The notes under the pieces are model-generated. The model was not told the origin of the DNA and did no database searches. It saw nothing but the letters and a program-made list of their open reading frames with translations. From IMG/VR virus record IMGVR_UViG_2974594041_000001, positions 4,449-68,448 of that record: 64,000 nucleotides of DNA; one strand, given 5' to 3'. Positions 3,001-37,261 of the stretch are shown here, piece by piece. A program made the translations under genes and the position numbers. The DNA is from a virus. Positions within the stretch are counted from its first letter, which is position 1; each line of letters begins with the position of its first letter.

Positions 3001-6000
3001 AGGTCTTTCAAGTAGGCAGCGTGAGCCGGATCAGCTTTATGGTTGCCGACGGCTTCCAGTGCATCGAATACCTGCTCGGCAGTCATAGCGTTGACGTGAT
3101 CCACAGCATCTTCGTACTTGTGGGTCAGTGTCTCGCGCTTTGCCTGGGCAGCAGCGGATTCTTTGAACAGGACAGCGGAGTTGGCAACCAGGTTGGCCAT
3201 ACCATTGTTCAGCTTCACGTTGTTGTTACCAAACAGCATTTCGGTCAGCGACTTGATGAAACCTTTCAGACCGTCGAGGATCGACTTGTCTTTCTGCGCC
3301 ACGGTCACCTGGCCCAGGACTTCCTTTTGGAAATCTTGGTTGGTCAGGCCCCACGCCAGCAGCTCGTGCACGTTGGAGGTAGCATTGCGGTATTTAGCTG
3401 ACAGCTCACCATTGTTGGCGATGAAGTCTTCAGCAGCAGCACGCAGTGTCTCCAGTTGTGCAACAGCACGGCCAGACACGGTCTCTTTACCTTGGTTTGC
3501 GTCGATCAGGTTCGCCAGAGCAGCGTGGACCAGTTCATGGGTCAGCAGCTCAGGAGTGATACCGGATTCAACGAACTCAGGCGATTTGATAAACAGACCA
3601 GCCTTACCTTGGCGCTGTGCGTACCAACCACGGGACTTGTCCACACCTTCGCCGAACGCACCTTCAGGGCCGGTCTCGGAGGTGATGTAGGTCACTGGCA
3701 TGGAGGCGTCGAAGCCGCGCTTGGCCATTTTCAGCACAGTCTGCTGGAACGGGTCTTGAACGTACTCAACCAGCGAATCAGCCAGGTTGCGTGCAGTCAT
3801 TTGCGTGTTGCTCAGCATTTCGACCAGGTTTACGTCGGACTGCACAACTGGAGTGCCCAACTTGCCCCAAACAGACAGCTTGGCCTCGGATGCAGCGTTT
3901 ACTGCTTCAACCACGTCAGCAGCTTGATGTTCCGGTAGAGTTTGCAGGGCATCAGCCAGGGTGCGGTTACCTGAAACCATGGAGTCAATTACCTGGACCA
4001 CGGCCGGAGTTTGCTCCAGCGAAGCCAGGGTGTTGAGGGAAGTGGCCGGTGCCAGCGTGGTAACGGAGCGTGCCGACAGCTCAGCCTGCTTGCCAGCAAC
4101 GTAGGTCGCCGATTCGATACGAGCAGTGGCGTCCAGTTGGTTGGCAACCGATTCAGCCGCAGCGTTGAAGGTGGAGCCCACTTCACCCAACTTGGTTTGT
4201 GCCTTGGCACGATCCGCGTCGGTAACGAGGTAAGAGCCGCCGTCGGTGGCGTATTGGCCGATGGCCTGCATGTTGCCCAGCATTTCCAGCTTGTCGGTGT
4301 CTGCCTGACGGGCAGTTTCACGGATAGCGGTCAATTGCTCGGTGATGCTGCCACGCTTCTTCTCAGTACGGGCAACCATCTTCTCACGCAGCTTTGGTTG
4401 GATACGTGCGGCCAGAGTCGGGTCACGCATCACATTGGCTACGCCGGCCAGCACTTCATCGAGCATGTTGCTCATAGAGGTGGCGGACGAGTAGTCCAGC
4501 ATGGTGTTGAATGTGGCTTTGTTCAGTTCCTGGCCCACTTTCGCAACGTTGTTCAGGTCAACGCCTAGGGCGTCGTGAACGTTCAGCGCCTGCATAATGC
4601 CGTACACGGCAGAAGCAATTGCGGAGTCGCTGGAGTGAATGGAGGTAATGAACGGCATTACACCCGGGTCCACGTCTTGCACGCGAGAAGACGACAGACG
4701 AGTCGAACCGATACCGTTCATGGAGCCGTCAGGTGCGATGGTGTTCACCATTTCACCGAAAGCGACTTCTTGCTCGTAAGCGGCAGACGAGTCCATGGTC
4801 TTCTGCGACTTGGCCATGTACATGCCGGCTTCGCGCTGGCCTGAGGCCTGGGACATAGCAGTTTGCAGGATCGGAGCCATATCGCCCATGATCGAGTTCA
4901 CTTGGTCCTGTTGGGCCTTGGTCAGCGTGCGGATTGCGGCGCCAGCATTGTTGCGTGGCACATCAGGGCTGGAACCTTCAACGAACTCGGTTACACCTTC
5001 GCGAACGGCGTTGAACAGGTCAAACGACAGCTGGGCTGTCTGGTTGATCACGTTGCGGCGTGCGATGAAGGTTGCGTAGTTGTCGGCCAGCGCTTGCTCA
5101 GTTGGCTCACCCAGCAGCTCGTAGAACGAGTCTTTCAGGGCTTTCTGCTGTGTAGCATTCAGCTTGGTTTCCAGAGCCGCTTCGTAGCCAGTGTTCACGT
5201 CCAGGTTGTTCTTTGGGGAACGAATCAGGGTGTTCACGGCGCCGAACAGCTCAGCAACAGCAGCGTTGTCACGCTTGGCAGCAGCATCTTCGATACGGCT
5301 GTAGATCGCTTCAACGAAGCCGTCGGCCATACCTTCAACGGCAGTCTTCGGGTTCGAACCGAACATCAGTGCGGTCAGGGGCTTCTTGATGATGTTACGA
5401 CCTTTGGAGGTCACATTGCCTTCTGCGGTTTGCAGTTGGCCGGTGATTACCTGCATAGCGTTCAGCATGCCGACCTGACGGCCTTGAAGGCGGTTCAGGG
5501 CACCGGCAATGTTTGACTCGTACAGGTCGAGGTTGCCCTGGGCCTTGTAGTCGTTGAACTGCTCAAACGGGCTGTCCAGCTCAAAGAAACCACCTTGGTT
5601 CATGGTTTCGAAGCCTTTGGCACCCAGCATCAACAGGGAGAGCATCGGGCCGTTGGTTACGCCGTCCACTTCACCCATCATGGAAGTTTGGAACGAAGGC
5701 TTGCCATCCTGCTCAGCAATGCGCTGTTCAGCCAGGGCAACCATCGCGTCGAACGAATGGAACTTCTCGCCAGCGGCTTTCACGCCGTCAACGATTGCAG
5801 CTTCATTCACTTGACCATTGTCACGCAGAACGTCGACCAGTGCGTCGATACCAGCCTGAATGGCAGGAACTTGCACAGCCGCGTCGTAGCCGGCCAACAC
5901 TTTAGCAGTGGTGGTGGCTTCAGTCTTCTTACCGAACGCTTCCAGCACACGCAGCTTGAAGTTGTCCATTTCCGCTTTGTTGTCCAGGCGCACATCGGCA

Positions 6001-9000
6001 TTCCACTCGGACATGGCCAGCATGTGACGATGGATCTTCGAAGTCTGTGGGTTGATCACGTTTGCGGTCAAACCAACGCGCTGAGGCTTCCAAACGGAAC
6101 GACCGAAGAACAGTGGTTGCTCAAGACCCTGTGTGGAGCTATCGGCGGCCATCGCATTGATGAACGAGTCAAAGTTGTCCACTTGTTGGATCAGACCATC
6201 ATTCTTCGCCTGGCGGGAAGCCAGGTTCTCAACGTGGGTCGGTGAGTCGGTAGTCGACACGACGCCACCCATTTCGTACAGAGCTTGCTTCGACAGCTTG
6301 CCCCATACGTGCCACATGTTCTGACGCACGACGTGAGCTTTTTTGCTTTCGCCTTCCAGAACTTTGGCCAGAACCGACGGAACCTCTTGCCCGGTGCGCT
6401 TTGCGAATTCTTGGGTAAAAGACAGCGGTGTGTAGCTTGGCTCGACGCCCGCAGCCTCCACGGCGAACAGTTTTGCAACTGCCGACTGGGAACCGGTCGA
6501 ACGCTCACGAATACGCTTCACAACTGGTGCTGGTTGTAGTTTGCCATCAGCATCGGTCATCGAAGCCACGGCAATGAAGTTGTGGGTCAGTTTCGCATCA
6601 AATTCAGTGTTACCCATCAGGGCTTGTAGCTTCTGGTCAGCTAGTTGAGTACGGGTGACCATACCCAGCTTGACCATGGCCGCGATAGCGCGCTCGCCGA
6701 TAGAGGCTTCAAGCTTGCTCATTTCGGCACGAGTACCTTCCTGGCTTACTTGCAGGCCCAAGGCTTGCACGATACGACCACCAAGCTGCGACGCTACGAC
6801 CGACTCTCGGGTACCGATAGACGATAGCGCAGCATACGCAGCATTGGAGATTTCGTCGTCCAGGTCGCGCATCAGAATAGTGTTGATCGACTCAGGACTG
6901 TTACGCAGTTGAGTTGCGTTTTCGTTTGCCCACGAGAACATGCCATAAGACACGGCAGTCGCCAGGTTCTCATCAATTGTGCCGTCGGCATTCTGCAGAA
7001 ACTGCGCCATGTCCCGGTAGAAAAAGTCCGGACGTTTGGCACGAGTTGCAGTGACCTTGAATTGGTTGCGCACGGCTTGCTCAGCAAATTGAGCGAAGTT
7101 GAAAAATGCATTGAGTGCGGTGACTTGTGGGGCCGGCAGCGGGCCTTCTTGCTTAAGGAAGTCTTGCACGGTCACTTCGCCAGCCTTGATGGCGGATGCG
7201 AAGTCTTTGACAGCTACCAGCGGGCGTACGCTTGCGTCTGTGTCGGAACCGACCTTTTGGTCAAACAGTTCAGCGACCAGGTTCACATTACGGTAGTTGT
7301 CGGCAGTTACTGCTTCCCCAGTGCGACCGTCGAAGGTGGTGAGCTGGCCAGCATTTGCTGGGACAGACTCGGCCTTATCCGAGGTGTTTTCCGGGTTTAC
7401 GGCAGCTTCTTCGGCTACAGCAGTGTCAACAGTCTCATTCTGTGCCGGAGCTACCGGGGCAGTTTCAACAGTTGCAGATGGTGCAGCTTCTGGAGCTTGA
7501 GCAGTAACTTCACCCTGTTCAGCAGTCGGTTGCACAACCGGGGCAGCAACAGGTGTTGGAGCAGCATTTACCAGAGCTTCGAATGCGTCAGCAGTCTTCG
7601 CCAAAACGTCCGCTTCAGCAACTACACCGTCGCGCAGTTTGAAGGAACGGGCGGAAACTTCCAGGCCACCGGCTTCTTTCAGGGCTTTGCCCTTCAAGTC
7701 AGTCGGACCCCATTCGCCTTGCTCATTCCGCACCAGGGCAATCTTGTTGTCGGTACCTTTCACTTGCTCGTAGGCAGCGGTGATGGCATCGGCTTTGGAT
7801 TGCTGGCTGACAGCGAAACTGCGAATGCCATCGACTTGCGAGCGGGCTGCAGTTTCGTTGCCATCGGCCAGGGCCATACGGACAGCATTGCGATATTGCG
7901 AGATACCCTTGAAGCCGGGACCGCCAGTGGCGATTTCCGCGCTAACGCCAGACATGCCCTTCAAGGCATTGGCTGCCACCTGTGCTTCAGTGAAGAGGCG
8001 CATGGCGTTACGCTGCGGCTCAGTCAGGCTTTCACTCTGTGCGAGAGATTCAGCGACCGAGACGGGCACGGATTCAGGGTTGGTCATGGTCAGGGTCAAC
8101 AGGCGGTCATAAGACTCCTTGTCCCCTGTCTGTGCTTCGTTTGCAAGCGACTCGACCTCAGCCAGCTCAGGACTGGAGTCTACGCGCATGCGCTCACCGG
8201 CAGCGTGGATCTCACCCAACTGACTTTCCAGTTGAGCAGCTCGTGCCACATCAGCTTTACGTTGGGCAGGCGTGTACGACGATACAGCTTCATGGATCTC
8301 GCGCATTTCAGCGATATCGGCTTGGTTTACACCAGTGGCTTCCATCTGCTGGATGATTTGCGAGATTTGTTCAATACGCTCCGGAGAGGTGTTGTCCAGG
8401 CGAGCTTGGATCGAAGACAAGTCTGCGGTCACATCTTGCTGAATACGGTCGACCTGAGCGAGGTTTTCCTCGACTTTGGCACCATCTTGCAGGTTCATCT
8501 GGTGCAGCGCTTCAACAGCGCGGGCCGGATTATATGCAGGGGAAGTGCTGTCGGTCAGGGACGAAACGTCACCGGTTTCCACAGCCGAAGTGAATGCTTG
8601 TTCTACAGCTTTGCGTTGAGCCGGGGCAGTGCTTTTACCGCCAGCAATCTCAGCGCCCAGGTGGAAGTTACCGCCGACCAGCGCACCAATGGTGAAGCCT
8701 TCGACGATGTCCTCCAACGAGGTTTCTTTCAGCTGGGCGCGATTCTCTGCATAGGTTTGGTAGCCTTCGGTCACGCCTTCACGTGCACCGGCAGCACCAA
8801 TACCGGCAGCAGCAGCCATCGCTTTGTTGCCCGAGCCAGTACCAGCAGCACGCAAGCCTTTCAACAGGCTCACGTCGCCAATAGTTTCAGCAGCAGCGGC
8901 CGATGCAGCAAACAGACCCATTTCAGCCCGGGTGTCTGCATCAGGCAATTGCCCTTCGTTTTTTTCCGCGTACTCACGAATACCCTTGCGATATGCGTCA

Positions 9001-25271: not shown

Positions 25272-25284
25272 GGGCCTTCGGCCC
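25272..25284 (+). promoter_or_regulatory. vRNAP-type hairpin promoter
   Basis: GGGCC-TTC-GGCCC; the template strand gives a C(GAA)G triloop hairpin like N4 early promoters. Confidence 0.6.
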
Positions 25285-25324
25285 TGCAACGGTACAATCC
25301 TGTGCCATCCATGGAGGTACAACT

Positions 25325-25425: not shown

Positions 25426-25482
25426 TGAGGTGGATACCATCCTGGTGTCTGCCTCTCATATCCCTAGCTAGGAGTTACACCC

Positions 25483-25779
25483 ATGTTCAAGCAAATCTTC
25501 GCAATGATCGCTCAAGCTGCACTGATGCTGACCAACCTGTTCGCTGCGGGCACCAAACTGTCCAATGCTGCCGTGCATACTGCTGCTTTCGTCGAAGGTG
25601 CTGCCGAGGGCTTCAATGAAATCGCTTCCCTGGAACGCAACGAGAAACTCGAAGCTCTCCGTGGCAAGTACGACATCAACACCCGTATCCGTGCCGTTGA
25701 ATCCCAACTGGCCGCTTCCGACGCCGAGTCCAAACTCAAGCTGCTCCGCGCTGAAGCCTCCAACACTGCTGCTGCCTAA
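25483..25779 (+). CDS. N4 gp1-like early protein
   Basis: First substantial early gene; amphipathic N-terminus 'MFKQIFAM...LF.AG.KL' and a helical charged C-terminus; recalled similarity only. Confidence 0.55.
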   Translation: MFKQIFAMIAQAALMLTNLFAAGTKLSNAAVHTAAFVEGAAEGFNEIASLERNEKLEALRGKYDINTRIRAVESQLAASDAESKLKLLRAEASNTAAA

Positions 25780-25789
25780 CCAACCAATA

Positions 25790-25803
25790 GGGCCTTCGGG
25801 CCC
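25790..25803 (+). promoter_or_regulatory. Stable hairpin (promoter variant or RNA stabiliser)
   Basis: GGGCC-TTCG-GGCCC with no U tract. Confidence 0.4.
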
Positions 25804-25820
25804 ACTCTAGGAGTATATCC

Positions 25821-25955
25821 ATGTATCTCGTCAAAGAACTCTGGGCAATGTACGACACCTGGGCCAATGCTGGCATCGTATCCCCATACACCAAACGTGC
25901 AGCTCTGCGCTTGCAAGCTAAAGCGCTCATCGCTGAAGACCGTCACTCTCGCTAA
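25821..25955 (+). CDS. 44-aa hypothetical protein
   Basis: GGAGTATATCC-ATG leader; MYLVKELWAMYDTWANAG... Confidence 0.6.
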   Translation: MYLVKELWAMYDTWANAGIVSPYTKRAALRLQAKALIAEDRHSR

Positions 25956-26101
25956 CATAGGGGAGTGGCATCTCTTTTTTAAGAACACACAACAACATCA
26001 CACATCAAGAGCACACATCGGGACCGCTTTGAGACAGTAGGCTAGGAAGACACCCTTTGCTCGCCATTGGCGTGCACTTACCACTCATCGACACAGTATG
26101 T

Positions 26102-26123
26102 GAGGGAATAGGGAGGGAATAGG
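26102..26123. repeat. Tandem 11-bp direct repeat in non-coding early region
   Basis: GAGGGAATAGG x2. Confidence 0.8.
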
Positions 26124-26255
26124 AGTGAAACAGTGGTTCATGTCGGCTTAACTTGCAGGTTTCCCCTTTCCTGTATCCTATCAACACCATTCGTCATTCC
26201 TATGTGTACCTATGTCCTATCGGACCTGTTATGGTATTCATTATGAGGTGTTCCC

Positions 26256-26405
26256 ATGCATATTCGTGTAACTAATCCTGTTGGTATCGTTTGGCGGCAT
26301 GAGCTGGTTGATTGGGTCACAGCTGGTATGGTCCTGGCCATTCTTGCTGATCTGCGTAAGAAGCTGCCTGAAAATCAGTATCAGTTTTGTTGGGGTACTC
26401 CCTGA
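26256..26405 (+). CDS. 49-aa hypothetical protein
   Basis: GAGG RBS; TGATG coupling to the next gene. Confidence 0.55.
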   Translation: MHIRVTNPVGIVWRHELVDWVTAGMVLAILADLRKKLPENQYQFCWGTP

Positions 26406-26644
26406 TGGAATATATGCTGCTTGTGGATGGTAGCGTGAATGTCACGCTTGAATTGCCCAATCGTGCTGCTGTCATGTCAGCACTGATAAGTGAAGGCGGT
26501 GATGCACATTACTGGCGTGAACCTGGCGGTCGTTGGTGCTGTATCAAGAACACAGGTGTATTCAAGGGCTTGGATGATGTTGATGTAGCTATCAAGTATG
26601 TTGATGTGCCTGATGTTGTTAAACTTGCTGTTATGCTGGAGTAG
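26405..26644 (+). CDS. Small early protein, C-terminal motif family
   Basis: Ends VPDVVKLAVMLE. Confidence 0.8.
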   Translation: MEYMLLVDGSVNVTLELPNRAAVMSALISEGGDAHYWREPGGRWCCIKNTGVFKGLDDVDVAIKYVDVPDVVKLAVMLE

Positions 26645-26646
26645 TT

Positions 26647-26874
26647 ATGGAATATGTATTGTTTGATGACGGTTATATTGTAGTTGTCGAAGATACCCTG
26701 GACTACAAACAGATCCATGAAATACTGGTAACTGTTAAAGGTGCACTTGAATATTATTGGTTAGATCCCGGTAGAGGTTGGCACCGCTTAACAAGTGACA
26801 GCACTTCATCTCTGCGCGCCTATGATTCAATAGAACCACCAGAGATTATCAAACTTGTACACATGTTGGGGTAA
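26647..26874 (+). CDS. Small early protein, C-terminal motif family
   Basis: Ends PPEIIKLVHMLG. Confidence 0.8.
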   Translation: MEYVLFDDGYIVVVEDTLDYKQIHEILVTVKGALEYYWLDPGRGWHRLTSDSTSSLRAYDSIEPPEIIKLVHMLG

Positions 26875-26876
26875 TC

Positions 26877-27131
26877 ATGGAATATGTACTATTTAATGAT
26901 GGCTATGTTGTAGCCATAGATGATTCATTGGAGTATTCACAACTGCTCGCCATTCTTACAACTGTTGAGGGTGCCGTGGGGTACTACTGGAAGCCAGGGA
27001 GTGAATATCTCTGGCGGTGTATATCTCCGCTGTCTGGTGTCAACGAAACTACGGAAGCAGTAGATAGGACTAAAAATACAGTCGTAGACGAGCCACCCGA
27101 CGTTATTAAACTGGCAATCATGCTATCGTAA
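26877..27131 (+). CDS. Small early protein, C-terminal motif family
   Basis: Ends PPDVIKLAIMLS; N-terminus near-identical to the previous gene (MEYVLF.DGY). Confidence 0.8.
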   Translation: MEYVLFNDGYVVAIDDSLEYSQLLAILTTVEGAVGYYWKPGSEYLWRCISPLSGVNETTEAVDRTKNTVVDEPPDVIKLAIMLS

Positions 27132-27132
27132 T

Positions 27133-27150
27133 TCCCCTTCGGGGATAAAG
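27133..27150 (+). promoter_or_regulatory. vRNAP-type hairpin promoter
   Basis: TCCCC-TTC-GGGGA, AT-rich -4..-1 (TAAA), +1 G at 27150. Confidence 0.7.
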
Positions 27151-27184
27151 TAGGCATTTGCCATCACTTATAGGAGTTATATCC

Positions 27185-27448
27185 ATGCGTACATTGTCTC
27201 GGATTGAATGCTTTGCTGTTGGTTGCTCCAATGAGGCTGCTGTGAAGGTCAATGATGATCTGCTGTGCTATCAGTGCTCCAAGCATGAAGTGCCTACATC
27301 CCCTGAGGACATCATGGTCTGGCCTTGTGCAACTTGGTGCTACCGTGAAGAACTATCTAGCATGTCCCACATGTCTGACGATTACGAAATCTTGTGGTTC
27401 GATACCGAAGCCTACAACGAGTTCCTTGCTGTTAATGGCCTTATTTAG
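27185..27448 (+). CDS. Cys-rich hypothetical protein
   Basis: GGAGTTATATCC-ATG; CxxxxC...CxxC; acidic C-terminus. Confidence 0.7.
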   Translation: MRTLSRIECFAVGCSNEAAVKVNDDLLCYQCSKHEVPTSPEDIMVWPCATWCYREELSSMSHMSDDYEILWFDTEAYNEFLAVNGLI

Positions 27449-27459
27449 GAGTTATATCC

Positions 27460-27909
27460 ATGTTCCGCATTAATCTGTGTCAAACACTCGATGTAACTAC
27501 CGATGCGTTCACTTACAAACAGATTGGCTCTACTGGCCCAGTCTATGTTGTAGATAGCGGCGCGCACCTCTATAAAGATGGTATGTGCATTGGTAAGTTC
27601 CAACTGGGTGATGCTCAATGGCACCTGTACATTGGCGACAAACTGTATCGTTCAGGCCCTGCCAATGGACTGTTCAAGCTGCCTGAGTTTGAACTGTCTG
27701 CACTTACTGCTCTGGCTAACGGCTTGCCTGGTATTGATCCGACTCGCAGTCCTGAACAAGCACTGAAAGAAATCGCTGCTCAGCTGGTGCCCATGGGTGC
27801 AAGGGCTGGCAGTGTGTATCAAGAACTGCTGTCGCTCGGGTATCTTGTACCTGTTGAAGACTGCAAAGCTGAAGTTGATAGCTTACTTGCGGAGTTACAC
27901 CATGTTTAA
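27460..27909 (+). CDS. Hypothetical protein
   Basis: 149 aa; same leader as the previous gene. Confidence 0.75.
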   Translation: MFRINLCQTLDVTTDAFTYKQIGSTGPVYVVDSGAHLYKDGMCIGKFQLGDAQWHLYIGDKLYRSGPANGLFKLPEFELSALTALANGLPGIDPTRSPEQALKEIAAQLVPMGARAGSVYQELLSLGYLVPVEDCKAEVDSLLAELHHV

Positions 27910-28108
27910 CGATAAAGAAATGACTGCGCAGTGTGCTGTTGTCAGTGCAGAGGCTGCCCGTAAACGTAAAGCTAATCGTCTTGTTAAGGCTTATGATAAA
28001 GCATGCCGTGAGTTGGCTGCTTGTGGGCCCTGGGATATAAATATCCATTCGTGTAAGGCAGAGTACAAACGCACTCGTGCAAACCTCCTGGCCTTCATGG
28101 GGGTGTGA
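27902..28108 (+). CDS. Hypothetical protein
   Basis: GGAG RBS; 68 aa. Confidence 0.65.
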   Translation: MFNDKEMTAQCAVVSAEAARKRKANRLVKAYDKACRELAACGPWDINIHSCKAEYKRTRANLLAFMGV

Positions 28109-28109
28109 G

Positions 28110-28277
28110 TTGTTCACACCATTCTTCTGCATATTCATGTTGGTAGCTTTGGCCGTGTCGGTTGAAGCTACCCGTGAATCAGGCTTATCACTGTGGCCAC
28201 GCACTTATGTGTGCATCTACACATCTGTTGTAACAGCGTGTGCAATTGCATACGTTCTATCTAAATTGATCAAATAA
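28110..28277 (+). CDS. Small membrane protein
   Basis: Two hydrophobic segments; start uncertain (TTG). Confidence 0.45.
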   Translation: MFTPFFCIFMLVALAVSVEATRESGLSLWPRTYVCIYTSVVTACAIAYVLSKLIK

Positions 28278-28288
28278 GGAATATTCCT

Positions 28289-28426
28289 ATGCCTTCCAAC
28301 ATGAACGATTACAACACCGGTTACGAAGCTTTCATGGACTCCGAGGAGTTCGATACCAACCAGTCGCAAGATTGGCAAGACGGTTACTTGGATGCTCAAG
28401 CAGCAGATTGTGCAGGAGCCTGCTAA
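28289..28426 (+). CDS. 45-aa highly acidic protein
   Basis: MPSNMNDYNTGYEAFMDSEEFDTNQSQDWQDGYLDAQAADCAGAC; 10 D/E and no K/R; TAATG coupling. Confidence 0.65.
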   Translation: MPSNMNDYNTGYEAFMDSEEFDTNQSQDWQDGYLDAQAADCAGAC

Positions 28427-28722
28427 TGTTCTCTGCATACTTTCTTACTTGCATGCTAAGCCTGCAAGGAAACCAAGGTTGTAATGTGGCCTTCACTGAA
28501 ATGCCTGAGTGGGTAACTACCCAGGAAGAGTGTGACCGCGTTACTGAACAGATGCATGACACTGTCTTGTTTCAAGTTCAAATCGAGCACCCGAGCATGT
28601 ACCTGTTCCGTAAAGAACATGGCTGCTACGGCGGTCCCTTGTCGGCCGGCGAAATCGCACGTGATGAGCATGCCAAGCTGCTGAATGCGGGCATTGATGC
28701 ATCCCTGTCGGATATTCCATAA
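28426..28722 (+). CDS. Hypothetical protein
   Basis: 98 aa, coupled start. Confidence 0.6.
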   Translation: MFSAYFLTCMLSLQGNQGCNVAFTEMPEWVTTQEECDRVTEQMHDTVLFQVQIEHPSMYLFRKEHGCYGGPLSAGEIARDEHAKLLNAGIDASLSDIP

Positions 28723-28821
28723 CCGATATTCTAATAAATACAAAATTGCCATATTCGGCGATGAAAACCATACCGCTATGCGCTCAAAACGAGCGCTGGC
28801 GATATCCTAACTGAGGTCTGT

Positions 28822-29082
28822 ATGAGTACTGCAAAGAAGCCTGAATCGTTTGCTTCCAACTGTCTTGACAGCTTGAAGGGCACCATTGCCCGTCAGATTC
28901 GTCATCAGATCACCACCCACCGTATGAAATATCCGGTTGCTGAGCAAATCTTCGGTTTGAGTGGTGCAAGCCTGTCTCGCATCATGAATCACAAAGAAAA
29001 CTTGATTTCGTTCGAAACGCTACACAATGCAGCTGTAACTGCTGGTATGTCTGTCAGTATGGTGCTGACAGTACCTGATTAA
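28822..29082 (+). CDS. XRE-like HTH protein
   Basis: 'AEQIFGLSGASLSRIMNHK.N.ISFETL..AA...GM.V' pattern; GAGG RBS. Confidence 0.65.
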   Translation: MSTAKKPESFASNCLDSLKGTIARQIRHQITTHRMKYPVAEQIFGLSGASLSRIMNHKENLISFETLHNAAVTAGMSVSMVLTVPD

Positions 29083-29092
29083 GATCAAAAGC

Positions 29093-29103
29093 GGCCTTCG
29101 GCC
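29093..29103 (+). promoter_or_regulatory. vRNAP-type hairpin upstream of drc (or terminator)
   Basis: GGCC-TTC-GGCC, extendable with a bulge. Confidence 0.5.
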
Positions 29104-29161
29104 CTTTAAAGGCAATTGTGCCAATAAACTCATCCTTTTCCGTTATTCTGGAGTATTTCCC

Positions 29162-29494
29162 ATGGCTGTTGAACGCAAAACCACCCAAGCTGCACCTGCT
29201 ACCTCCGAGCGCAACGAGCGTACCGCTAAGAAGACCCTCGGCTTCTTCAACGTGAACATCGAAACCCGGGCCGGAGCGCCTGTGCGTCTGGAAGGTATCC
29301 GCTTCATCGAAGGCAACAAGCAGCACGAGCAACTGGCTGCTTACCTCTCGGTGACCCAGGCCAGCGACAAGGACTTCACGCCTGAACAAATCGTTGAAGA
29401 AAAGGCACGCCGCCTGGCTGTTGTCGCCACCAAGCTGACCTACAGCTTCAACGCAACCCGCACTGACGAAGAGTCGATGCTGGACCTGGTGTAA
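29162..29494 (+). CDS. drc: ssDNA-binding RNAPII cofactor, Drc-like (functional analogue of N4 gp2)
   Basis: Aligns to the LUZ7 Drc sequence as I recall it: F.N...TR.G..VRL, H.QL..(Y/F)L.V, C-terminal TR(S/T)(E/D)EE..LDL. Confidence 0.65.
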   Translation: MAVERKTTQAAPATSERNERTAKKTLGFFNVNIETRAGAPVRLEGIRFIEGNKQHEQLAAYLSVTQASDKDFTPEQIVEEKARRLAVVATKLTYSFNATRTDEESMLDLV

Positions 29495-29500
29495 TCCTTT

Positions 29501-29536
29501 GGCCATCATCCCATTGGGGTGGTGGCCTCACTTTTT
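29501..29536 (+). terminator. Terminator after drc
   Basis: 12-bp imperfect stem GGCCATCATCCC/GGGGTGGTGGCC followed by a T run. Confidence 0.7.
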
Positions 29537-29644
29537 AAAGGCATAAACCAGTGATAAAAAGCATTGGCAGTATCGCTTGGCGAATCCTCGCCGCAATCCT
29601 CGTATTCACCTATCTCGCACTACAATTCATCTAGGAGATTCAAA

Positions 29645-30382
29645 ATGGACATCAATACTGTATTAATGATCCTCGGCGCTGCTGTATTCATCCTTCCTTG
29701 TGTGTATCTGCTGGGCTATGCCCGTCGTGAGAAGCAACAAGAAGGCTGGGCTGCGGATTCTCGCGCAGGCTTCAATAAAGAACGTGGTGCGCTGCAAGCG
29801 TACCATGCTGCCGAAATGCAGAAGGAACGTAACGTCGTACGTGAGTTGGAGATCAGCTTGCTGAAAGCAGGTGAGGCTATTGAATGCAGTGAACGTGATG
29901 TCGCGAAAATGACCAAACGTTGGGAATACGCCGATAACTATCGCGCAGCCATCGTTGAAGTCGTACATGGCCTTGGCCTGTGGAACTTCAAGGTACACGC
30001 TGACGATCCTCGTCTGATGTTGCAGGTGTTGGTCGATCATGCTTCGAAAGAAGCTGTTGATCCGGCGACAAGCAAGAAAGCCAAAAGCCTGATCACTCGT
30101 GGTGTCCGTAAGGGCGCCAAGCAGGGCCGTGAGCAAATGCGCAAGCTGATGCAGAAGTCCATCGACAATCAGGCAACGACCATCGAAATGCTGAGAGCTG
30201 ACCTTAAGTCAGCAGAAGAAGACGTGGCCTACGCTGTAAAGCGTAAGGACATCAGCGTCCAAGCTGTTCGTAACGTCCTTGCGGATAAAGTTGCACTGCC
30301 TGGCGTGCGCCGCTCGCTCAGTCAAGCAATCATCGTAGAAACCGGTCGTCTGCGTCAAATCGCAGCAACTAAAGGGGAATAA
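29645..30382 (+). CDS. Membrane-anchored coiled-coil protein
   Basis: N-terminal TM helix and long heptad region; GGAG RBS. Confidence 0.75.
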   Translation: MDINTVLMILGAAVFILPCVYLLGYARREKQQEGWAADSRAGFNKERGALQAYHAAEMQKERNVVRELEISLLKAGEAIECSERDVAKMTKRWEYADNYRAAIVEVVHGLGLWNFKVHADDPRLMLQVLVDHASKEAVDPATSKKAKSLITRGVRKGAKQGREQMRKLMQKSIDNQATTIEMLRADLKSAEEDVAYAVKRKDISVQAVRNVLADKVALPGVRRSLSQAIIVETGRLRQIAATKGE

Positions 30383-30385
30383 ACC

Positions 30386-30721
30386 ATGCAAACCTTCATC
30401 AACGTAATGACTGTGCTCATTCTGTTGGCGTTCCTAGCATTGATGCTGCGTGAACTGGCTCGTAGCCAGAAATCGGCAGAACTGCCCAAGGATCACTTCA
30501 AGTACGTGATGCATATCCAGTATGTTGCGGTGAAAGGTGAAGAGCCCGTCATTCGCCGACATTCTGCGAACAGCCTGCAATATATGCAGGAAACGCTGAA
30601 CAACGTGGTGTTTCATGCCATCGACAATGCAGTTGTGTTCTGTGCGGGGCGTGTAACGCACCGTATGGATAAAACCAGTGGTGTACTGTGCGAGGTTCCG
30701 TCCGATGCTAACCGTATTTGA
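30386..30721 (+). CDS. Hypothetical protein with N-terminal TM helix
   Basis: 111 aa; GGGG RBS. Confidence 0.7.
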   Translation: MQTFINVMTVLILLAFLALMLRELARSQKSAELPKDHFKYVMHIQYVAVKGEEPVIRRHSANSLQYMQETLNNVVFHAIDNAVVFCAGRVTHRMDKTSGVLCEVPSDANRI

Positions 30722-30737
30722 CGAGGTAGAAGATCCC

Positions 30738-31049
30738 ATGGCCTTGAACAACCACGTTGTATCCCGTGCGCACATCAAAGCAGAGGTGATCTGCGCTGTG
30801 CTCCAGAATGGCGATGCTGTCCACTTTGAGTCCCGTCAGGGTTTCAACGGTGGCGAGTATGCCAAGCAGGCCTTTCAGAAGTTCGGGAAGTGTCGTGTCA
30901 TCTTCTATCAGCCCAATGATCACCACATGTGGCGTGAAGTGCGCTGGAAGAACGCAAACGTAGGTACTCTGTATCGTCGTCCGTCTTTCAAGACGCTCAG
31001 CGATGCTGATGTGCCTGATCATCTACAAGTTGCAGCGATGCTGTTGTGA
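30738..31049 (+). CDS. Small early protein, C-terminal motif family
   Basis: Ends VPDHLQVAAMLL. Confidence 0.75.
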   Translation: MALNNHVVSRAHIKAEVICAVLQNGDAVHFESRQGFNGGEYAKQAFQKFGKCRVIFYQPNDHHMWREVRWKNANVGTLYRRPSFKTLSDADVPDHLQVAAMLL

Positions 31050-31387
31050 TCGTAACCCGTCCTGACGGTACCATAGAAGTGTACGACGATTCGGGTAAAG
31101 TCAGGTTGCGGCTGGGAGATTTAAGCAAGGGGACTATAATGGCTGAAATGTATCACATGACGAAGGATGGGCAGTACGTTACTGGTGAAATAGCTACCCA
31201 CGATATGAGTCAAGTGACTCAATGGGCACAACTGCGTGAAACTTACGCAGGAATGCAGTCTTGGTGTAAAACCGGCAACAATAGCTGGCATACAGTGGCA
31301 GCTTGCGACATTGGACGGGGTCGTTGGGAAAGCGTATTTGAAAATATCGTCCCTGAATCCGTTCGTATGGCAGAAATGCTCCGATGA
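31046..31387 (+). CDS. Small early protein, C-terminal motif family (alternative ATG at 31139)
   Basis: Ends VPESVRMAEMLR; two plausible starts. Confidence 0.7.
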   Translation: MIVTRPDGTIEVYDDSGKVRLRLGDLSKGTIMAEMYHMTKDGQYVTGEIATHDMSQVTQWAQLRETYAGMQSWCKTGNNSWHTVAACDIGRGRWESVFENIVPESVRMAEMLR

Positions 31388-31445
31388 CTGCATTCCTGCA
31401 AACCCACCAGAAGTGTTGCTTATGGCTAAGTTACTGGAGATTTGA
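31383..31445 (+). pseudogene. Orphan 3' fragment of a C-terminal motif family gene
   Basis: Encodes DDCIPANPPEVLLMAKLLEI* with no in-frame start of its own. Confidence 0.6.
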
Positions 31446-31446
31446 C

Positions 31447-31884
31447 ATGAAAGAGGTAAATCGCGGAGATATGATGGATGTCTTCGACAAAGTCGATCAT
31501 TTCATCATTACTGTTGGCAGTAAGCTGAGATCAGAGAACAATGAGTTAATCATGTTAAATGGTCTCTCCGGGGCGTTGGGTCTTAAATACCCTACCCTAA
31601 AGGTGAAGATGGGAGCGTGGATCGCGGGGGAGTGTGGTAGTGAAGGTGAGTTCTACCTTCGTGTCTCGGGGAAGGTTGGCATGCTACAGCATAGCCAGGC
31701 GCCTCGACAAGGGGTCAGCATTTCAATTCTGTCCACTGGCCTCCGTTTACTGGCAGAGCTGGCAGAGGACAACCCCGGGAAGTCCTACGCCCTGGAATGG
31801 CCAGGCACAAACCAAATCGAGAAGCTGGTAAACCAGATGATTGAGCGGTTGCCAGCCAACGTCCAAGTGTGGCGGCCAGCGTGA
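31447..31884 (+). CDS. Degenerate macrodomain (ADP-ribose-binding fold) protein
   Basis: 'GDM...FIIT.GS...NNELIM.NG...AL..KYP.L...MG.WI', 'L..LA....GKSYAL.WPG'; resembles phage Macro/Poa1p-like proteins. Confidence 0.5.
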   Translation: MKEVNRGDMMDVFDKVDHFIITVGSKLRSENNELIMLNGLSGALGLKYPTLKVKMGAWIAGECGSEGEFYLRVSGKVGMLQHSQAPRQGVSISILSTGLRLLAELAEDNPGKSYALEWPGTNQIEKLVNQMIERLPANVQVWRPA

Positions 31885-32126
31885 GCGTCATGATCATGTC
31901 TGCTCGCTACGACACGGCTGCGAACGTCTTGATGGACGTGTCTACCTCTTGGGTAGGCCGTCCGCTGACCGACAGGGAGAAGGTCTATGCCCTGTTCGAC
32001 CGTGCGGGAACCCCGTTAGAGGGTAAAGAACCGTGGTACGTCTACGGAATTTCCCATGACGCTATCCACATAAAATATGAGGACTTACCGGAGGTAGTGC
32101 GCATGGCGTATCTATTAATGCAATGA
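31881..32126 (+). CDS. Small early protein, C-terminal motif family
   Basis: GTGA coupling; ends LPEVVRMAYLLMQ. Confidence 0.75.
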   Translation: MSVMIMSARYDTAANVLMDVSTSWVGRPLTDREKVYALFDRAGTPLEGKEPWYVYGISHDAIHIKYEDLPEVVRMAYLLMQ

Positions 32127-32338
32127 GCACTAAACGTGTTGGCTGGTGCCGACTTACCGAAGAACTGGTGCTGGATGTTCAGATTCTGAATATTCCGTAC
32201 CTCCGTGACGATATGGACGTTTACGTCTGTGACGAGAACCGTTGGTTGTGTTGGGCGCCTGAACATCAGGCGTATAACGTAATTGACCCAACTCTCGTTC
32301 CTGACGTGATCAAAATGGCAATGGTGATGCTTGAATGA
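32123..32338 (+). CDS. Small early protein, C-terminal motif family
   Basis: Ends VPDVIKMAMVMLE. Confidence 0.8.
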   Translation: MSTKRVGWCRLTEELVLDVQILNIPYLRDDMDVYVCDENRWLCWAPEHQAYNVIDPTLVPDVIKMAMVMLE

Positions 32339-32625
32339 GAACTTTCACGGCAGCAGCCCCATTTGGGGAAATGACCATGGGGATTTTATATCTCGTGGTC
32401 AATGAGGTTCCGGAGGTGTGTCACAACACCTACTTTAAAACCAATCTGAGCATTGCGAAGGAGGCGTACCAAAATGACCCGTTTGCGATTGTATATCTAT
32501 TCACTGAGCAAGGACGTTGGTTCAAAGGTGAATATTGCTACTCAAACCAGCGGCATCACTTCACTCCTGTGGGTATGGCAGCAGTACCTGACTTAATCCT
32601 GACGATGAGGTTGATGCAACCATGA
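32335..32625 (+). CDS. Small early protein, C-terminal motif family
   Basis: Ends VPDLILTMRLMQP. Confidence 0.75.
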   Translation: MRTFTAAAPFGEMTMGILYLVVNEVPEVCHNTYFKTNLSIAKEAYQNDPFAIVYLFTEQGRWFKGEYCYSNQRHHFTPVGMAAVPDLILTMRLMQP

Positions 32626-32933
32626 AAACCCTTTGGGTGATCCTAAACGACGACAAGTCTGCTGTTGTTGAGGTGTTTGAAACCGAAGACGTTGATTCGC
32701 ATAGACATTGGGGCAAGTTCTTCCAGCATCGTGCAGGAAACGTGTTCTGTCGTCGTGTCCATAAACTTACCCCACAATCTACCAAGCCCTCAGATATTGA
32801 GACTGCCTGGTACGCAAACTACTTCTACTGGACGAATACGTCCTCTTGGGGGTACGGAGAGCCTAGTGGTATGGCCTGGTCTGCATGTATGGCTTTGCCT
32901 GAGCCGCTAAAAATGCTGGAGTTCCTGGAATGA
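32622..32933 (+). CDS. Small early protein, C-terminal motif family
   Basis: Ends LPEPLKMLEFLE. Confidence 0.75.
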   Translation: MKTLWVILNDDKSAVVEVFETEDVDSHRHWGKFFQHRAGNVFCRRVHKLTPQSTKPSDIETAWYANYFYWTNTSSWGYGEPSGMAWSACMALPEPLKMLEFLE

Positions 32934-33202
32934 GTAAAGAACTATCGATAGGTCTGCTTGATGGCGAAATTACGGATGTATTCACAACCTGGATGACCCC
33001 AACTGAGCTGGATAGACACTTTAGCCTCGGTGAAGTGTATACGCTGGCTAAAGAACCTCAGGGCATGCAATGGCGTGTGTTGCAACGCGCCACTAAGACA
33101 GGTGCAAGCTCCGGGCTTATAGGTACATGGGCAGCATTGTTGCCTATAAATGCTGAGCAAGTACCTGAAATTGTACGAATGGCTGCGCTTATGCGCGACT
33201 GA
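32930..33202 (+). CDS. Small early protein, C-terminal motif family
   Basis: Ends VPEIVRMAALMRD. Confidence 0.8.
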   Translation: MSKELSIGLLDGEITDVFTTWMTPTELDRHFSLGEVYTLAKEPQGMQWRVLQRATKTGASSGLIGTWAALLPINAEQVPEIVRMAALMRD

Positions 33203-33210
33203 GGTGACAA

Positions 33211-33441
33211 ATGGCAGTATCAGGCAAAACCCACTTACTTTACCTATTCAGAGGCAGGTTAGAAATTGAGGATGTCTCTTGGTATGAGGCTTCCCTCCGC
33301 ATGCGGGCAATTCAAGGATGTACACGGGCAGATGTTTACCGTTTAGATCCTGACGGTACCTTGTGTGAGTATTACGGGAATTATTGGCGAATTGCCAAAA
33401 ATGTACCAGACGAAATCAAACTAGCAGCAATGCTGCTGTAG
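33211..33441 (+). CDS. Small early protein, C-terminal motif family
   Basis: Ends VPDEIKLAAMLL. Confidence 0.8.
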   Translation: MAVSGKTHLLYLFRGRLEIEDVSWYEASLRMRAIQGCTRADVYRLDPDGTLCEYYGNYWRIAKNVPDEIKLAAMLL

Positions 33442-33449
33442 GGGACTAT

Positions 33450-33686
33450 ATCCGAATCTTTATCCTGAAGTTTGATGGTAGCGTTGAGGTAACTGACGCA
33501 ACTAACAACTTTGCATATTACATGCATAAAAACTACCCTAAAGGTCAAGTATTTGCTGAACAGGAGGTGAAAACGCGCATGTACTGGCGTGTACTGCACA
33601 GAGATCACAAGGGTAATGGGCCTGCTTGGATTTATGCTGAAAAAGTACCAAAAGAAGTGCTATTTGCACGAATGCTTATAGATTAG
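33450..33686 (+). CDS. C-terminal motif family protein with no canonical start (ATC at 33450?)
   Basis: Ends VPKEVLFARMLID; GGGGA RBS precedes ATC-CGA-ATC. Confidence 0.55.
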   Translation: MRIFILKFDGSVEVTDATNNFAYYMHKNYPKGQVFAEQEVKTRMYWRVLHRDHKGNGPAWIYAEKVPKEVLFARMLID

Positions 33687-33696
33687 GGGATTATCC

Positions 33697-33915
33697 ATGG
33701 TACTGCTGGTTATTGTGACCAAAAAAGAAGAACTGTTTCATGTTTACGTAAATCCTGAATCTTCGTGGAATACTGCAAAAGGGGCAGAGCAAGTAGGACT
33801 TAAAGCTTACGTGTACGAGAGCGGTTCCGGGCTTTTTACCGAAGTTGGTGAGTACGGCTGGAGACACTGCCGGAATCCCCCTGAAATTGTAAAAATGACT
33901 CAAATGTTGTACTAA
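33697..33915 (+). CDS. Small early protein, C-terminal motif family
   Basis: Ends PPEIVKMTQMLY. Confidence 0.8.
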   Translation: MVLLVIVTKKEELFHVYVNPESSWNTAKGAEQVGLKAYVYESGSGLFTEVGEYGWRHCRNPPEIVKMTQMLY

Positions 33916-33928
33916 CAGGAGAATATCC

Positions 33929-34858
33929 ATGAAACCGACTCACATGCTTACTGACGACATGCAAAAGGCGAACGAATATCGCTTTGCCAAACAGCATATC
34001 GACAAGTACATGCGTGACTACGTGCTGTCTGACGTGGAAGTGCTACCTCTGTTGGACAAAGGCGTGGAGTTGCTCACCGCCTGGGTCGATACCGAGTTCA
34101 GCTACGAATCGAAGAACAACCGTGTCAGCGCCCTACGCGGCATGGACCTGCGTCAGCTGGTTGTCGACCTGGTTGTGGCCTCGGCCTACTGCCAGACCGA
34201 AGAACTGTTCACCAGCTTCACGGCGCGCATGGCCGGCGTCCTCGGCTGGGACGACAAGAAGGCCAGCATCACCACCATCGCGGAAATCACCGCAGTGCTG
34301 TGCGACACCGACCTCTATGACCTGACCCAGGCCAACCGGTTCGGCAGCTGGAACATCATCAGCAACATCACCCTTTCCCTGCAATTGCAGGAGTACATCG
34401 CCAATTGTGCCTACCTGCCTCCGCTGGTGCACAAGCCGAAGAAGCTGCGCCACAACAAGGACACGCCGTATCTGACCATCGGCCAAGACTCGGTGATTCT
34501 GAATAAGGGCCATCACAATGACGACGTGTGCCTTGATGTGCTGGATTCGAAGAACTCTGTGGCCCTGTGCCTGGATCTGGAATTTCTGAGTTCTCACGAG
34601 GAAGTTCCGACCAAGGAGTTCGACACACCAGAGCAGCAAACCATGTGGTTGAACATGAAGCGCCAGTCGCACGAGTTCTACCTACTCATGGCCGGCCAAG
34701 GCAACAAGTTCTACCTGCACCACAAATACGATAAGCGTGGGCGTATCTACGCCAACGGTTATCACATCTCGACTCAAGGGGCCCCTTACAAGAAGGCGAT
34801 GCTGGAATTCGCCAACAAAGAAGTCGTTTCTGACATTCCACAGGAGTTTGCTCTATGA
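33929..34858 (+). CDS. RNA polymerase II subunit 1 (N4 gp15-like)
   Basis: 309 aa; 'HKYDKRGRIYA.GYHI..QG' (T/DxxGR motif). Confidence 0.92.
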   Translation: MKPTHMLTDDMQKANEYRFAKQHIDKYMRDYVLSDVEVLPLLDKGVELLTAWVDTEFSYESKNNRVSALRGMDLRQLVVDLVVASAYCQTEELFTSFTARMAGVLGWDDKKASITTIAEITAVLCDTDLYDLTQANRFGSWNIISNITLSLQLQEYIANCAYLPPLVHKPKKLRHNKDTPYLTIGQDSVILNKGHHNDDVCLDVLDSKNSVALCLDLEFLSSHEEVPTKEFDTPEQQTMWLNMKRQSHEFYLLMAGQGNKFYLHHKYDKRGRIYANGYHISTQGAPYKKAMLEFANKEVVSDIPQEFAL

Positions 34859-36007: not shown

Positions 36008-37261
36008 ATGAAAACTTACACCCCGTTCGAATTCCTGTGCATTGACATTGCAAACCAAGGTTATGACGACAAGAAGCTGTTCGAAGAACGAATCCAGTGG
36101 GTGAAGGAGAACTTCAACCGCCTGCTGTTCCTCGAAACTGGCAAGAAAGAGCGCCCGCTCTACGTCAAGGCTGTGACCGCCCTGTACCGCGCCTGCCGTG
36201 GTGAGGCCATCGGTCACATGGTTGGCCTGGACGCCACCTGCTCTGGCATGAGCATCATGTCCGTGGTCACCAAGTGCTACAAGGGCTGCCTAGCCACCAA
36301 CCTGATCGACCCGGACGTGCGCAACGATGCGTACACCATGGTCACCGACGAAGCTGGCAACATGCTGGACGGCGATCTGATCGTGACCCGGGGCGATGCC
36401 AAAGACGCCACCATGACCACGCTGTACGGCTCTCAGGCCAAACCGCGTGAGATCTTCGGCACTGATACCGAGGAGTTGGATGCGTTCTACGCTGGCCTCG
36501 TGGCTGTTGCACCGCGTGCGGTGGAGCTGCTGGGTGACCTGCGCATGGCATGGCAACCGTTCGCCCTGGAACACCGTTGGGTGTGCCCGGACAACTTCAA
36601 CGTCCGCATCAAGGTGATGCAGAAGGTTGAAGGCGAGCGCGTCGAGGTTGACGAGCTGGACGGCGCCTCGTTCACCTACGAGTATTACGTGAACGAAGGC
36701 ACCAAGTCCGACCTGAAACTGGTAGCGAACGTGACCCACAGCCTCGACGCATATCTGCTCCGCTCCATGGAGCGCCGCTGCAACTACAACCCGGACGACG
36801 TTCGCCTGTCCTACAACCTGTTGATGGATGAGCAGGTTGAGCGTCATATGGGTTACCGGATCGAGCAAGACCTGACTGAAGCATCCAACATTGCACAACA
36901 ACTGATTGCTGTGTGGGGAGGCTGCGAAATGCCAGAAGCTCGTCTGTTCACTCACCTGAGCCGCGCAGACGCGCAGTTCATGAGTGATAAGCACATCCAA
37001 CAGATGCTGGATTTGGCAACTCAGCTGCTTGAGCGTGAACCGTTCGAAATCGTGACCGTTCACGATGAGTTCAAGTGCCACGCCAACAACTGTAACTGGA
37101 TGCGCCTCACTTACGTGCAAATCATGGCCGATCTGGCCCGTGCGCGCGTACTGGAGGACATCTACGAGCAGATCACCGGCCTGACGCCGACTTACGAAGG
37201 CCAAATGGACGGAGACGAGCTTGCAGCTCTGATCATGGGTTCCAACTACGCACTAAGCTAA
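36008..37261 (+). CDS. RNA polymerase II subunit 2 (N4 gp16-like)
   Basis: Motif A DATCSG, motif B RGDAKDATMTTLYGS, motif C VHDEF. Confidence 0.95.
   Translation: MKTYTPFEFLCIDIANQGYDDKKLFEERIQWVKENFNRLLFLETGKKERPLYVKAVTALYRACRGEAIGHMVGLDATCSGMSIMSVVTKCYKGCLATNLIDPDVRNDAYTMVTDEAGNMLDGDLIVTRGDAKDATMTTLYGSQAKPREIFGTDTEELDAFYAGLVAVAPRAVELLGDLRMAWQPFALEHRWVCPDNFNVRIKVMQKVEGERVEVDELDGASFTYEYYVNEGTKSDLKLVANVTHSLDAYLLRSMERRCNYNPDDVRLSYNLLMDEQVERHMGYRIEQDLTEASNIAQQLIAVWGGCEMPEARLFTHLSRADAQFMSDKHIQQMLDLATQLLEREPFEIVTVHDEFKCHANNCNWMRLTYVQIMADLARARVLEDIYEQITGLTPTYEGQMDGDELAALIMGSNYALS

Follow-up and report, generated by a model that had tools for sequence, protein, structure and literature searches.

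Thirteen small genes in two arrays share a C-terminal motif

We analyzed a 64,000-nucleotide stretch of viral DNA (hereafter the window) that carries two arrays of small open reading frames (ORFs) ending in a common C-terminal motif (hereafter the tail). It spans bases 4449-68448 of a viral record that is 72,821 bp long and has terminal repeats. The window has the markers of an N4-like phage: a minus-strand ORF of more than 3,257 amino acids (aa), an N4-type RNAP1 gene at 33929-34858 whose product matches phrog_2166 (E 2e-106), and an RNAP2 gene at 36008-37261. An earlier note on this DNA had described 13 tail-bearing ORFs, and all of them were located on the plus strand, three in a first array (26405-27131) and ten in a second (30738-33915) that lies directly upstream of the RNAP1 gene. 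They encode proteins of 71-113 aa with isoelectric points (pI) from 4.1 to 9.3 and loops of varying length. A family hidden Markov model (HMM) run over all stop-to-stop ORFs of the genome found exactly these 13 and one tail fragment (31389-31445), a tail-only deletion scar, and nothing more. The arrays belong to an early-type block that immediately precedes the N4-type RNA polymerase (RNAPII) genes, and their position and orientation relative to the N4 early block and these genes suggest that the family is expressed early. The features of the two arrays are as follows.

26405..26644, plus strand: member 1, 79 aa, "MEY" subfamily, tail VPDVVKLAVMLE; its ATG shares one base with the stop codon of the 49-aa ORF before it
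26647..26874, plus strand: member 2, 75 aa, MEY subfamily, tail PPEIIKLVHMLG; starts 2 nucleotides (nt) past the member 1 stop
26877..27131, plus strand: member 3, 84 aa, MEY subfamily, tail PPDVIKLAIMLS; no gene is coupled to member 3, and a CCCC-TTCG-GGGG hairpin follows
30738..31049, plus strand: member 4, 103 aa from the ATG at 30738 (alternative starts at 30678 and 30705), tail VPDHLQVAAMLL, pI 9.3
31046..31387, plus strand: member 5, 113 aa, GTG start in a GTGA overlap, tail VPESVRMAEMLR
31389..31445, plus strand: deletion scar, an out-of-frame orphan tail (..NPPEVLLMAKLLEI) with no usable start; the 14th copy
31447-31884: interrupting gene, 145 aa, unrelated to the family; matches phrog_335 "phosphatase" (E 1.6e-6)
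31869..32126, plus strand: member 6, 85 aa from the GTG at 31869, start uncertain, tail LPEVVRMAYLLMQ
32123..32338, plus strand: member 7, 71 aa, tail VPDVIKMAMVMLE, ATGA overlap
32335..32625, plus strand: member 8, 96 aa, tail VPDLILTMRLMQP, ATGA overlap
32622..32933, plus strand: member 9, 103 aa with six Trp, tail LPEPLKMLEFLE, ATGA overlap
32930..33202, plus strand: member 10, 90 aa, tail VPEIVRMAALMRD, ATGA overlap
33211..33441, plus strand: member 11, 76 aa, tail VPDEIKLAAMLL
33384..33686, plus strand: member 12, 100 aa from the TTG at 33384, overlapping member 11 by 58 nt, tail VPKEVLFARMLID, pI 9.3
33697..33915, plus strand: member 13, 72 aa, tail PPEIVKMTQMLY; a 13-nt spacer with its own GGAG precedes the RNAP1 gene (33929-34858)

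Translational coupling, noted earlier for most of the genes, is confirmed, with 2-nt spacers or 4-nt ATGA/GTGA overlaps at seven junctions. The CTGGAG of the scar forms the Shine-Dalgarno (SD) sequence of the gene at 31447, and an intact orthologue of the scar is present in four related metagenomic loci (8001-8222 of L005, and L012, L010 and L002).

Fold searches of BFVD returned proteins 100% identical to two members in Pseudomonas phage phCDa (Schitoviridae, genus Shizishanvirus): member 1 corresponds to A0A2Z5H8H8 and member 9 to A0A2Z5H966. The nearest other cultured Pseudomonas phages are Littlefix and 98PfluR60PP, with 63% identity in RNAP2. At the nucleotide level, blastn and megablast against a phage collection yielded a dCTP deaminase fragment in phage Piffle as the sole match. 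A search of sequencing runs gave a single run of unspecified type, probably that of the source sample, and no RNA run was listed.

The tail is conserved at the level of the protein

The tail follows the consensus P-[DE]-x-Φ-[KR]-[LM]-A-x-[ML]-[LM], where Φ is hydrophobic. The consensus given in the earlier note is correct in outline and too strict in detail: K occurs once at position 2, L or Q three times at position 5, and V, M, L or T four times at position 7. The proline is invariant and always lies 11-12 residues before the stop. Free variation is seen at positions 3 and 8 and in the last one to three residues. A relaxed C-terminal pattern, derived post hoc from data already seen, matched 14 ORFs in the window and none in 200 codon-shuffled windows. 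In addition to the tail, all 13 members share an invariant Trp, and so do 38 diverse members.

Because the last codons of one gene can double as the ribosome-binding site (RBS) of the next, we examined the motif codon by codon. Information content reaches 2.0 bits at the first and second codon positions and is 0.05-0.85 bits at the third, and the invariant proline is encoded by CCT, CCA, CCC and CCG. Since the third positions are nearly random, overlap with an RBS cannot account for the core of the motif. SD-like GGAG, GGGG or GAGG lies within the last two to four codons at only about 6 of 14 junctions, and the residues encoded there are the motif's least conserved. Members 3 and 13 keep the motif even though their tails have no downstream coupling duty. 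Thus, as the earlier note had proposed, RBS constraint explains the final codons and not the core; tail conservation acts on the protein.

An explanation of the tails as nucleotide-level elements, either RBS and coupling signals or recombination linkers for gene shuffling, is hardly credible in light of these data. It has in its favor the SD-like sequences at those six or so junctions, a scar that retains exactly the part feeding the next gene, and short nucleotide repeats (61-86% identity) that connect some tails. However, the conserved core is 12-33 nt ahead of the stop, the third codon positions are randomized, two tails are free of RBS duty, and the nucleotide identity is insufficient for homologous exchange.

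Similarity between the paralogues is concentrated in the tail. Leave-one-out HMMs recovered 9 of the 13 members at E<0.01; when the last 14 residues were removed, 2 of 13 were recovered, both from the first array. This part of the earlier description therefore stands.

Two other accounts of the tail were tried and rejected. Randomized third codon positions speak against gene conversion or concerted evolution, and the charge of the helix, net acidic or neutral with one basic residue, speaks against amphipathic membrane targeting.

The tail is predicted to be the last helix of a compact domain

We modelled two divergent members, mutually unrecognisable outside their C-terminal part, with AlphaFold2, each with its own orthologue alignment. 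The member 1 model has a predicted local distance difference test (pLDDT) score of 85.8 and a predicted template-modelling (pTM) score of 0.73, with strands at residues 2-6 and 11-14, a helix at 20-30, strands at 32-38, 44-48 and 60-63, and a helix at 70-78. The member 9 model (pLDDT 87.8, pTM 0.77) has strands at 3-8 and 15-21, a helix at 27-33, strands at 41-48, 59-69 and 83-88, and a helix at 94-102. Both are compact five-strand, two-helix domains with the same element order, β-β-α-β-β-β-α. The tail forms the last helix in each, with a pLDDT of about 87-90 that equals that of the core (90 for the tail block of member 1). The low-confidence stretch of the models is the variable loop that precedes the last strand.

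Unrelated folds, one of the outcomes that the earlier note had listed as refuting its proposal, were not what the predictions gave. Compared with the member 1 model, BFVD models of seven other phCDa members had template-modelling (TM) scores of 0.54-0.75 over alignments of approximately full length. The values for individual phCDa models were:

member 2 (75 aa): TM 0.71/0.75 to the member 1 model
member 5 (113 aa): TM 0.60
member 7 (71 aa): TM 0.54/0.59
member 8 (96 aa): TM 0.66/0.56
member 10 (90 aa): TM 0.50-0.57 to both models
member 13 (72 aa): TM 0.54/0.58

Proteins of Littlefix, 98PfluR60PP and phage phi176 matched one or the other model at TM 0.44-0.66. The homology also extends upstream of the tail in sequence comparisons. 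BLAST joins the MEY, MSTK and FILKF subfamilies across at least 60% of their length, and hhalign of two subfamily profiles (A2 and A3) gave an alignment of 37 columns (P=1.9e-4) that begins at the YYW..W strands and extends to the C-terminal end. With the family defined here by size (70-115 aa), the invariant Trp, the tail helix and a common predicted fold, 13 of 13 members belong by sequence, and the fold is present in the predictions. As first proposed, the arrays hold a real, diversified paralogue family; it lies in the early-type block upstream of the N4-type RNA polymerase genes. Its tail most likely forms the final helix of a single compact fold that the members have in common, and not a detachable docking tag.

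Copy number varies between close relatives

To place the family in a broader context, we compared it with related sequences. An exhaustive profile search of 1.84 billion representatives identified 40 proteins of 72-113 aa, three of which are the window's own; all are full-length matches, none is fused to another domain, and they originate from metagenomic contigs of 73-78 kb. Nine related metagenomic loci (L002, L005, L007-L013) have the same gene order with 9-16 copies apiece. Clustering gave about 17 orthologue groups that differ in presence and absence. The "VPEMVRLAV" group is found in eight of the nine related loci and is missing from the window, the "PPDVVxMAxLL" group is represented in the window by the scar only, and member 13 (33697-33915) has no detected orthologue. 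The number of MEY genes ranges from one in L002 to four in L012. These data indicate that copy number shifts between close relatives through duplication and deletion.

Each paralogue is well conserved among its orthologues, yet it changes much faster than the polymerase genes do: mean identity within orthologue groups is 43-59%, and the RNAP1 proteins of the seven IMG/VR loci among the nine are 85-92% identical to that of the window. In one group of 23 orthologues, 14 invariant positions fall in the body and 2 in the tail. Some orthologues (P0066-P0070, and proteins of L010 and L012) have 3-11 additional residues past the helix. A broad profile of 38 sequences searched against 5.8 billion proteins found 11 matches, all in the same phage clade, and was too diffuse for wider reach; tblastn of one orthologue (P0013) against phages gave no match.

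The family has relatives in cultured phages and no recognisable fold relative

Searches of family databases did not identify the proteins. In Pfam-A, 10 members had no family at E<=1. In PHROG, no member had a match at E<=0.01. For 12 members there was none at E<=0.1 either; the only rows up to that limit were at chance level (E 0.036 and above), among them one of member 12 to an unannotated PHROG (E 0.036). HMM searches of PDB sequences with the A2 and A3 subfamily profiles returned chance matches only. The member 1 model had no convincing relative in the PDB (Foldseek), in 48,161 PDB representatives (VIA), in AFDB clusters or in an ESM Atlas look-up, and the member 9 model had none in the same 48,161 PDB representatives or in the ESM Atlas. 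The best PDB Z scores were 4.0 for member 1 (AcrIF9) and 5.0 for member 9 (a phage P1 connector protein), both below the usual search noise. The WWE domain, which binds ADP-ribose, appeared in weak Foldseek rows only (TM 0.28-0.31, probability 0.08-0.10) and had no Pfam match.

AcrIF9 (7chr) and T4 Dmd (5hy3_B) are among the top structural neighbours of the member 1 model and resemble the family in size, in α/β build and in early expression, which is presumed for the family. The alignments are at noise level for both AcrIF9 (Z 4.0, root-mean-square deviation 3.5 Å over 56 residues) and Dmd (Z 3.5, 2.2 Å over 47 residues). Neither has sequence similarity to the family, and the analogy is one of kind only.

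The closest relatives in other cultured phages are in Littlefixvirus: Littlefix gp49-gp52, gp54-gp56 and an unannotated ORF at NC_048697 35244-35489, and 98PfluR60PP gp66, gp81-gp83 and gp85-gp86. These genes occupy the same slot, flanking a "phosphatase"-like gene just upstream of RNAP1, and their products have the same size and the same aromatic and Trp pattern. The family HMM matches them at E 3e-12 to about 0.1, and their BFVD models match at TM 0.49-0.66. Their tail is a variant, P-x-x-Φ-[KQR]-M-x-x-L-[VI]-G-x-x, which ends L-[VI]-G-x-x instead of M-L-x, and Littlefix gp54 continues for 25 residues past the helix. Unlike the window, these phages have fewer copies (about 8-9), annotated as hypothetical throughout, and the Littlefix relatives have no significant PHROG match. 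The unannotated Littlefix frame (82 codons; 5244-5489 of the locus) lies between annotated gp34 and gp35, has a family-type tail (EVPQLILMAHLIGV; HMM E 1.8e-5) and is probably a missed gene.

More distant resemblances occur in Litunavirus. PA26 gp18, gp20 and gp21, which surround the RNAP1 gene, have tail-like endings (..VPAEIRAQSLLFD, ..LPADLKAMLVIWSL.. and ..IPKELQALLTIYGL), and two phi176 protein models match at TM 0.44-0.53. However, the family HMM gives E 0.09 or worse, below significance. These proteins may be distant family members, as suggested by motif, synteny and weak structural similarity only. The tail-like helices at 5569-5877, 6834-7094 and 7451-7657 of PA26 (L015, NC_041907) read VPAEIRAQSLLFD, LPADLKAMLVIWSLDQLLE and IPKELQALLTIYGL, respectively. 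Profile searches of other phages had been proposed in the earlier note; they found the Littlefixvirus relatives, and the family HMM had no match in N4, Piffle or ZC03 and none of significance in PA26. The N4 gp3-like proteins and the right-end gp70/gp71 families of N4 are likewise tandem, fast-evolving and copy-number-variable small proteins of Schitoviridae, but the members have no significant PHROG match and the family HMM finds nothing in N4.

In the literature on Littlefix, N4-like phages, Schitoviridae early genes, phCDa and LUZ7 early proteins, we found no description of the family. A tandem array of fast-evolving small proteins in an N4-like phage is of a familiar kind; the family itself was previously undescribed, its genes having been deposited as hypothetical proteins of a cultured phage.

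A single fast-evolving domain family is the favored explanation

We favor, with somewhat better than even confidence, the view that these genes form one fast-evolving family of single-domain proteins that are probably early binders or inhibitors of host or defence proteins. The family would be a tandemly amplified, lineage-specific set of small β-β-α-β-β-β-α proteins in Pseudomonas N4-like phages. In this model, the Pro and Asp/Glu at the start of the motif cap the N-terminus of the last helix, and the hydrophobic positions (Φ4, L/M6, A7, M/L9 and L/M10) together with the invariant Trp probably make a common core. Such a core would explain why the helix is still recognisable while strands and loops have diverged beyond sequence detection: β-strands tolerate many hydrophobic substitutions and lose their signal fast, so that only the helix and one Trp can be recognised between paralogues. 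All conserved tail positions would then be explicable structurally, by the N-cap, the hydrophobic face and the conserved small Ala, and positions 3, 8 and the final residues would be expected to face solvent. The most likely role would be as stoichiometric binders or inhibitors of various host or host-defence proteins from the onset of infection. Paralogues that are individually constrained, differ in charge and loops and turn over rapidly have the signature usual for phage proteins that bind host or defence components.

Several observations weigh against this view. Burial of the helix is inferred from pLDDT, pTM and the full-length superpositions of predicted models. A modular design would likewise predict that paralogue recognition drops from 9 to 2 of 13 when the last 14 residues are removed. 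The hydrophobic arc of the helix is wide (ΦΦxΦΦxΦΦ), enough for a possible second use as an interface between molecules. A basic residue, probably exposed, is kept almost without change at position 5. Finally, the nearest structural neighbours, with best Z of 4.0 and 5.0, give no functional hint.

The earlier note had read the arrays as modular effectors in which variable heads bind different targets and a constant tail docks on a common partner. This adaptor model, in which a constant C-terminal helix docks each paralogue's specific body on one partner (a host factor, the adjacent phage RNA polymerase II, an AAA+ ATPase, or a membrane or scaffold protein), appears unlikely, and we still give it some weight. 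The tail is the sole element common to all paralogues at the sequence level, its nearly invariant K/R and acidic residue are candidate contacts, and its hydrophobic face is wider than a simple surface helix requires. Furthermore, the family adjoins the RNAPII genes in Shizishanvirus, in Littlefixvirus and, by motif, in Litunavirus. Against this stand the modelling of the helix at core-like confidence inside a compact domain in two members, the continuation of homology upstream of the tail (YYW..W to the tail), and the freedom of the solvent-facing positions 3 and 8 and the last one to three residues to vary. The modular-effector reading is not supported by these data, and a pattern of constant tail and variable heads in raw sequence can arise from a single fold whose last helix diverges slowest. 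A form of it in which all 13-16 paralogues plug via the same helix into one partner, a host hub or phage RNA polymerase II, with different specificities, we hold to be distinctly improbable. If true, the docking helix would create a set of interchangeable adaptors whose size the phage raises and lowers in accordion fashion.

A role for the helix in oligomerisation, with one half buried and the other forming a homo- or heterodimer interface between members made in equal amounts through translational coupling, is in our judgment a poor candidate. The ΦΦxΦΦxΦΦ pattern with a strictly small central Ala is as found in helix-helix crossings, and the family genes are tightly coupled; but copy number and membership vary among close relatives, which makes fixed hetero-complexes unlikely. 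The earlier suggestion of a ClpX/ssrA-type degron did not hold up. Short conserved terminal elements on otherwise dissimilar proteins are known from ssrA-type ClpX degrons and from the capsid targeting sequence of T4 internal proteins, and a hydrophobic C-terminus could in principle send early proteins to ClpXP or another protease for timed removal. The C-terminal segment is indeed hydrophobic, and this genome and its relatives carry a gene for a ClpX-type AAA_2 ATPase. However, the terminal one to three residues are the least conserved, with the members ending in E, G, S, L, R, Q, E, P, E, D, L, D and Y and none in Ala-Ala; some orthologues and relatives run 3-25 residues beyond the helix; and the conserved part is predicted to be a structured helix within a domain, not always terminal, and no free tail. 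We consider a degron very improbable.

Returning to the single-domain family, approximately 3.4 kb, or about 5% of the 72.8-kb genome, is devoted to one undescribed family without a recognisable fold relative. A clade of Pseudomonas N4-like phages maintains the family at 9-16 copies, and it evolves several times faster than core genes, a pattern typical of host- or defence-directed proteins. Broad resistance to bacterial immunity is a noted trait of N4-like phages, whose early genes are, to our knowledge, almost entirely uncharacterised. Because family members are present in cultured phages (phCDa, Littlefix and 98PfluR60PP), the family is directly testable.

Neighbouring genes and other features of the early-type block

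Littlefix gp53, 98PfluR60PP gp84 and PA26 gp17 are syntenic counterparts of the 145-aa gene within the second array, and all four proteins end ..LP-x-NV-x-[VI]W-[RS]-[RP]. Family members flank this gene in all three genera, and the array may therefore have grown from its neighbours.

The start of member 12 can be read in two ways. Its orthologues (P0009 and P0017) begin M-R-I-F with an ATG, and the corresponding codon in the window is an ATC at 33450, which would give a protein of 78 aa. This ATC sits 5 nt past an RBS-like TAGGGGACTAT, and the TTG at 33384 is the sole canonical in-frame start. Member 12 thus has either a non-canonical start or an N-terminal extension.

Upstream of the second array, 29162-29494 encodes a 110-aa early protein that matches phrog_6271 "toxin / host takeover" (E 2.7e-11), with annotated counterparts in Littlefix (gp46), 98PfluR60PP (gp78) and PA26 (gp13). 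A terminator-like hairpin with a T run, stronger than the hairpins described next, lies at 29501-29527. Four GC-rich hairpins with TTCG loops, such as GGGCC-TTCG-GGCCC and CCCC-TTCG-GGGG, lie in the early-type block (25273-25292, 25789-25803, 27131-27147 and 29093-29112), and the first array ends at one of them (27131-27147). They may act as RNA-stabilising elements, terminators or virion-RNAP signals. Across the window, Rfam gave no match, and scans for σ70 promoters and terminators gave counts not above shuffled expectation.

A nearly fixed, long translation-initiation cassette, TAGGAGTTATATCC-ATG, precedes several early genes outside the family (25469-25485, 27171-27187 and 27446-27462). 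Further sites are at 25806-25822, 33441-33455 and 33684-33699, and degenerate versions follow some family tails. Finally, the 49-aa ORF upstream of the first array (26256-26405) is coupled to member 1 via a one-base TGATG overlap, and is itself preceded by about 300 nt without an obvious gene (25960-26255) that could contain an early promoter.

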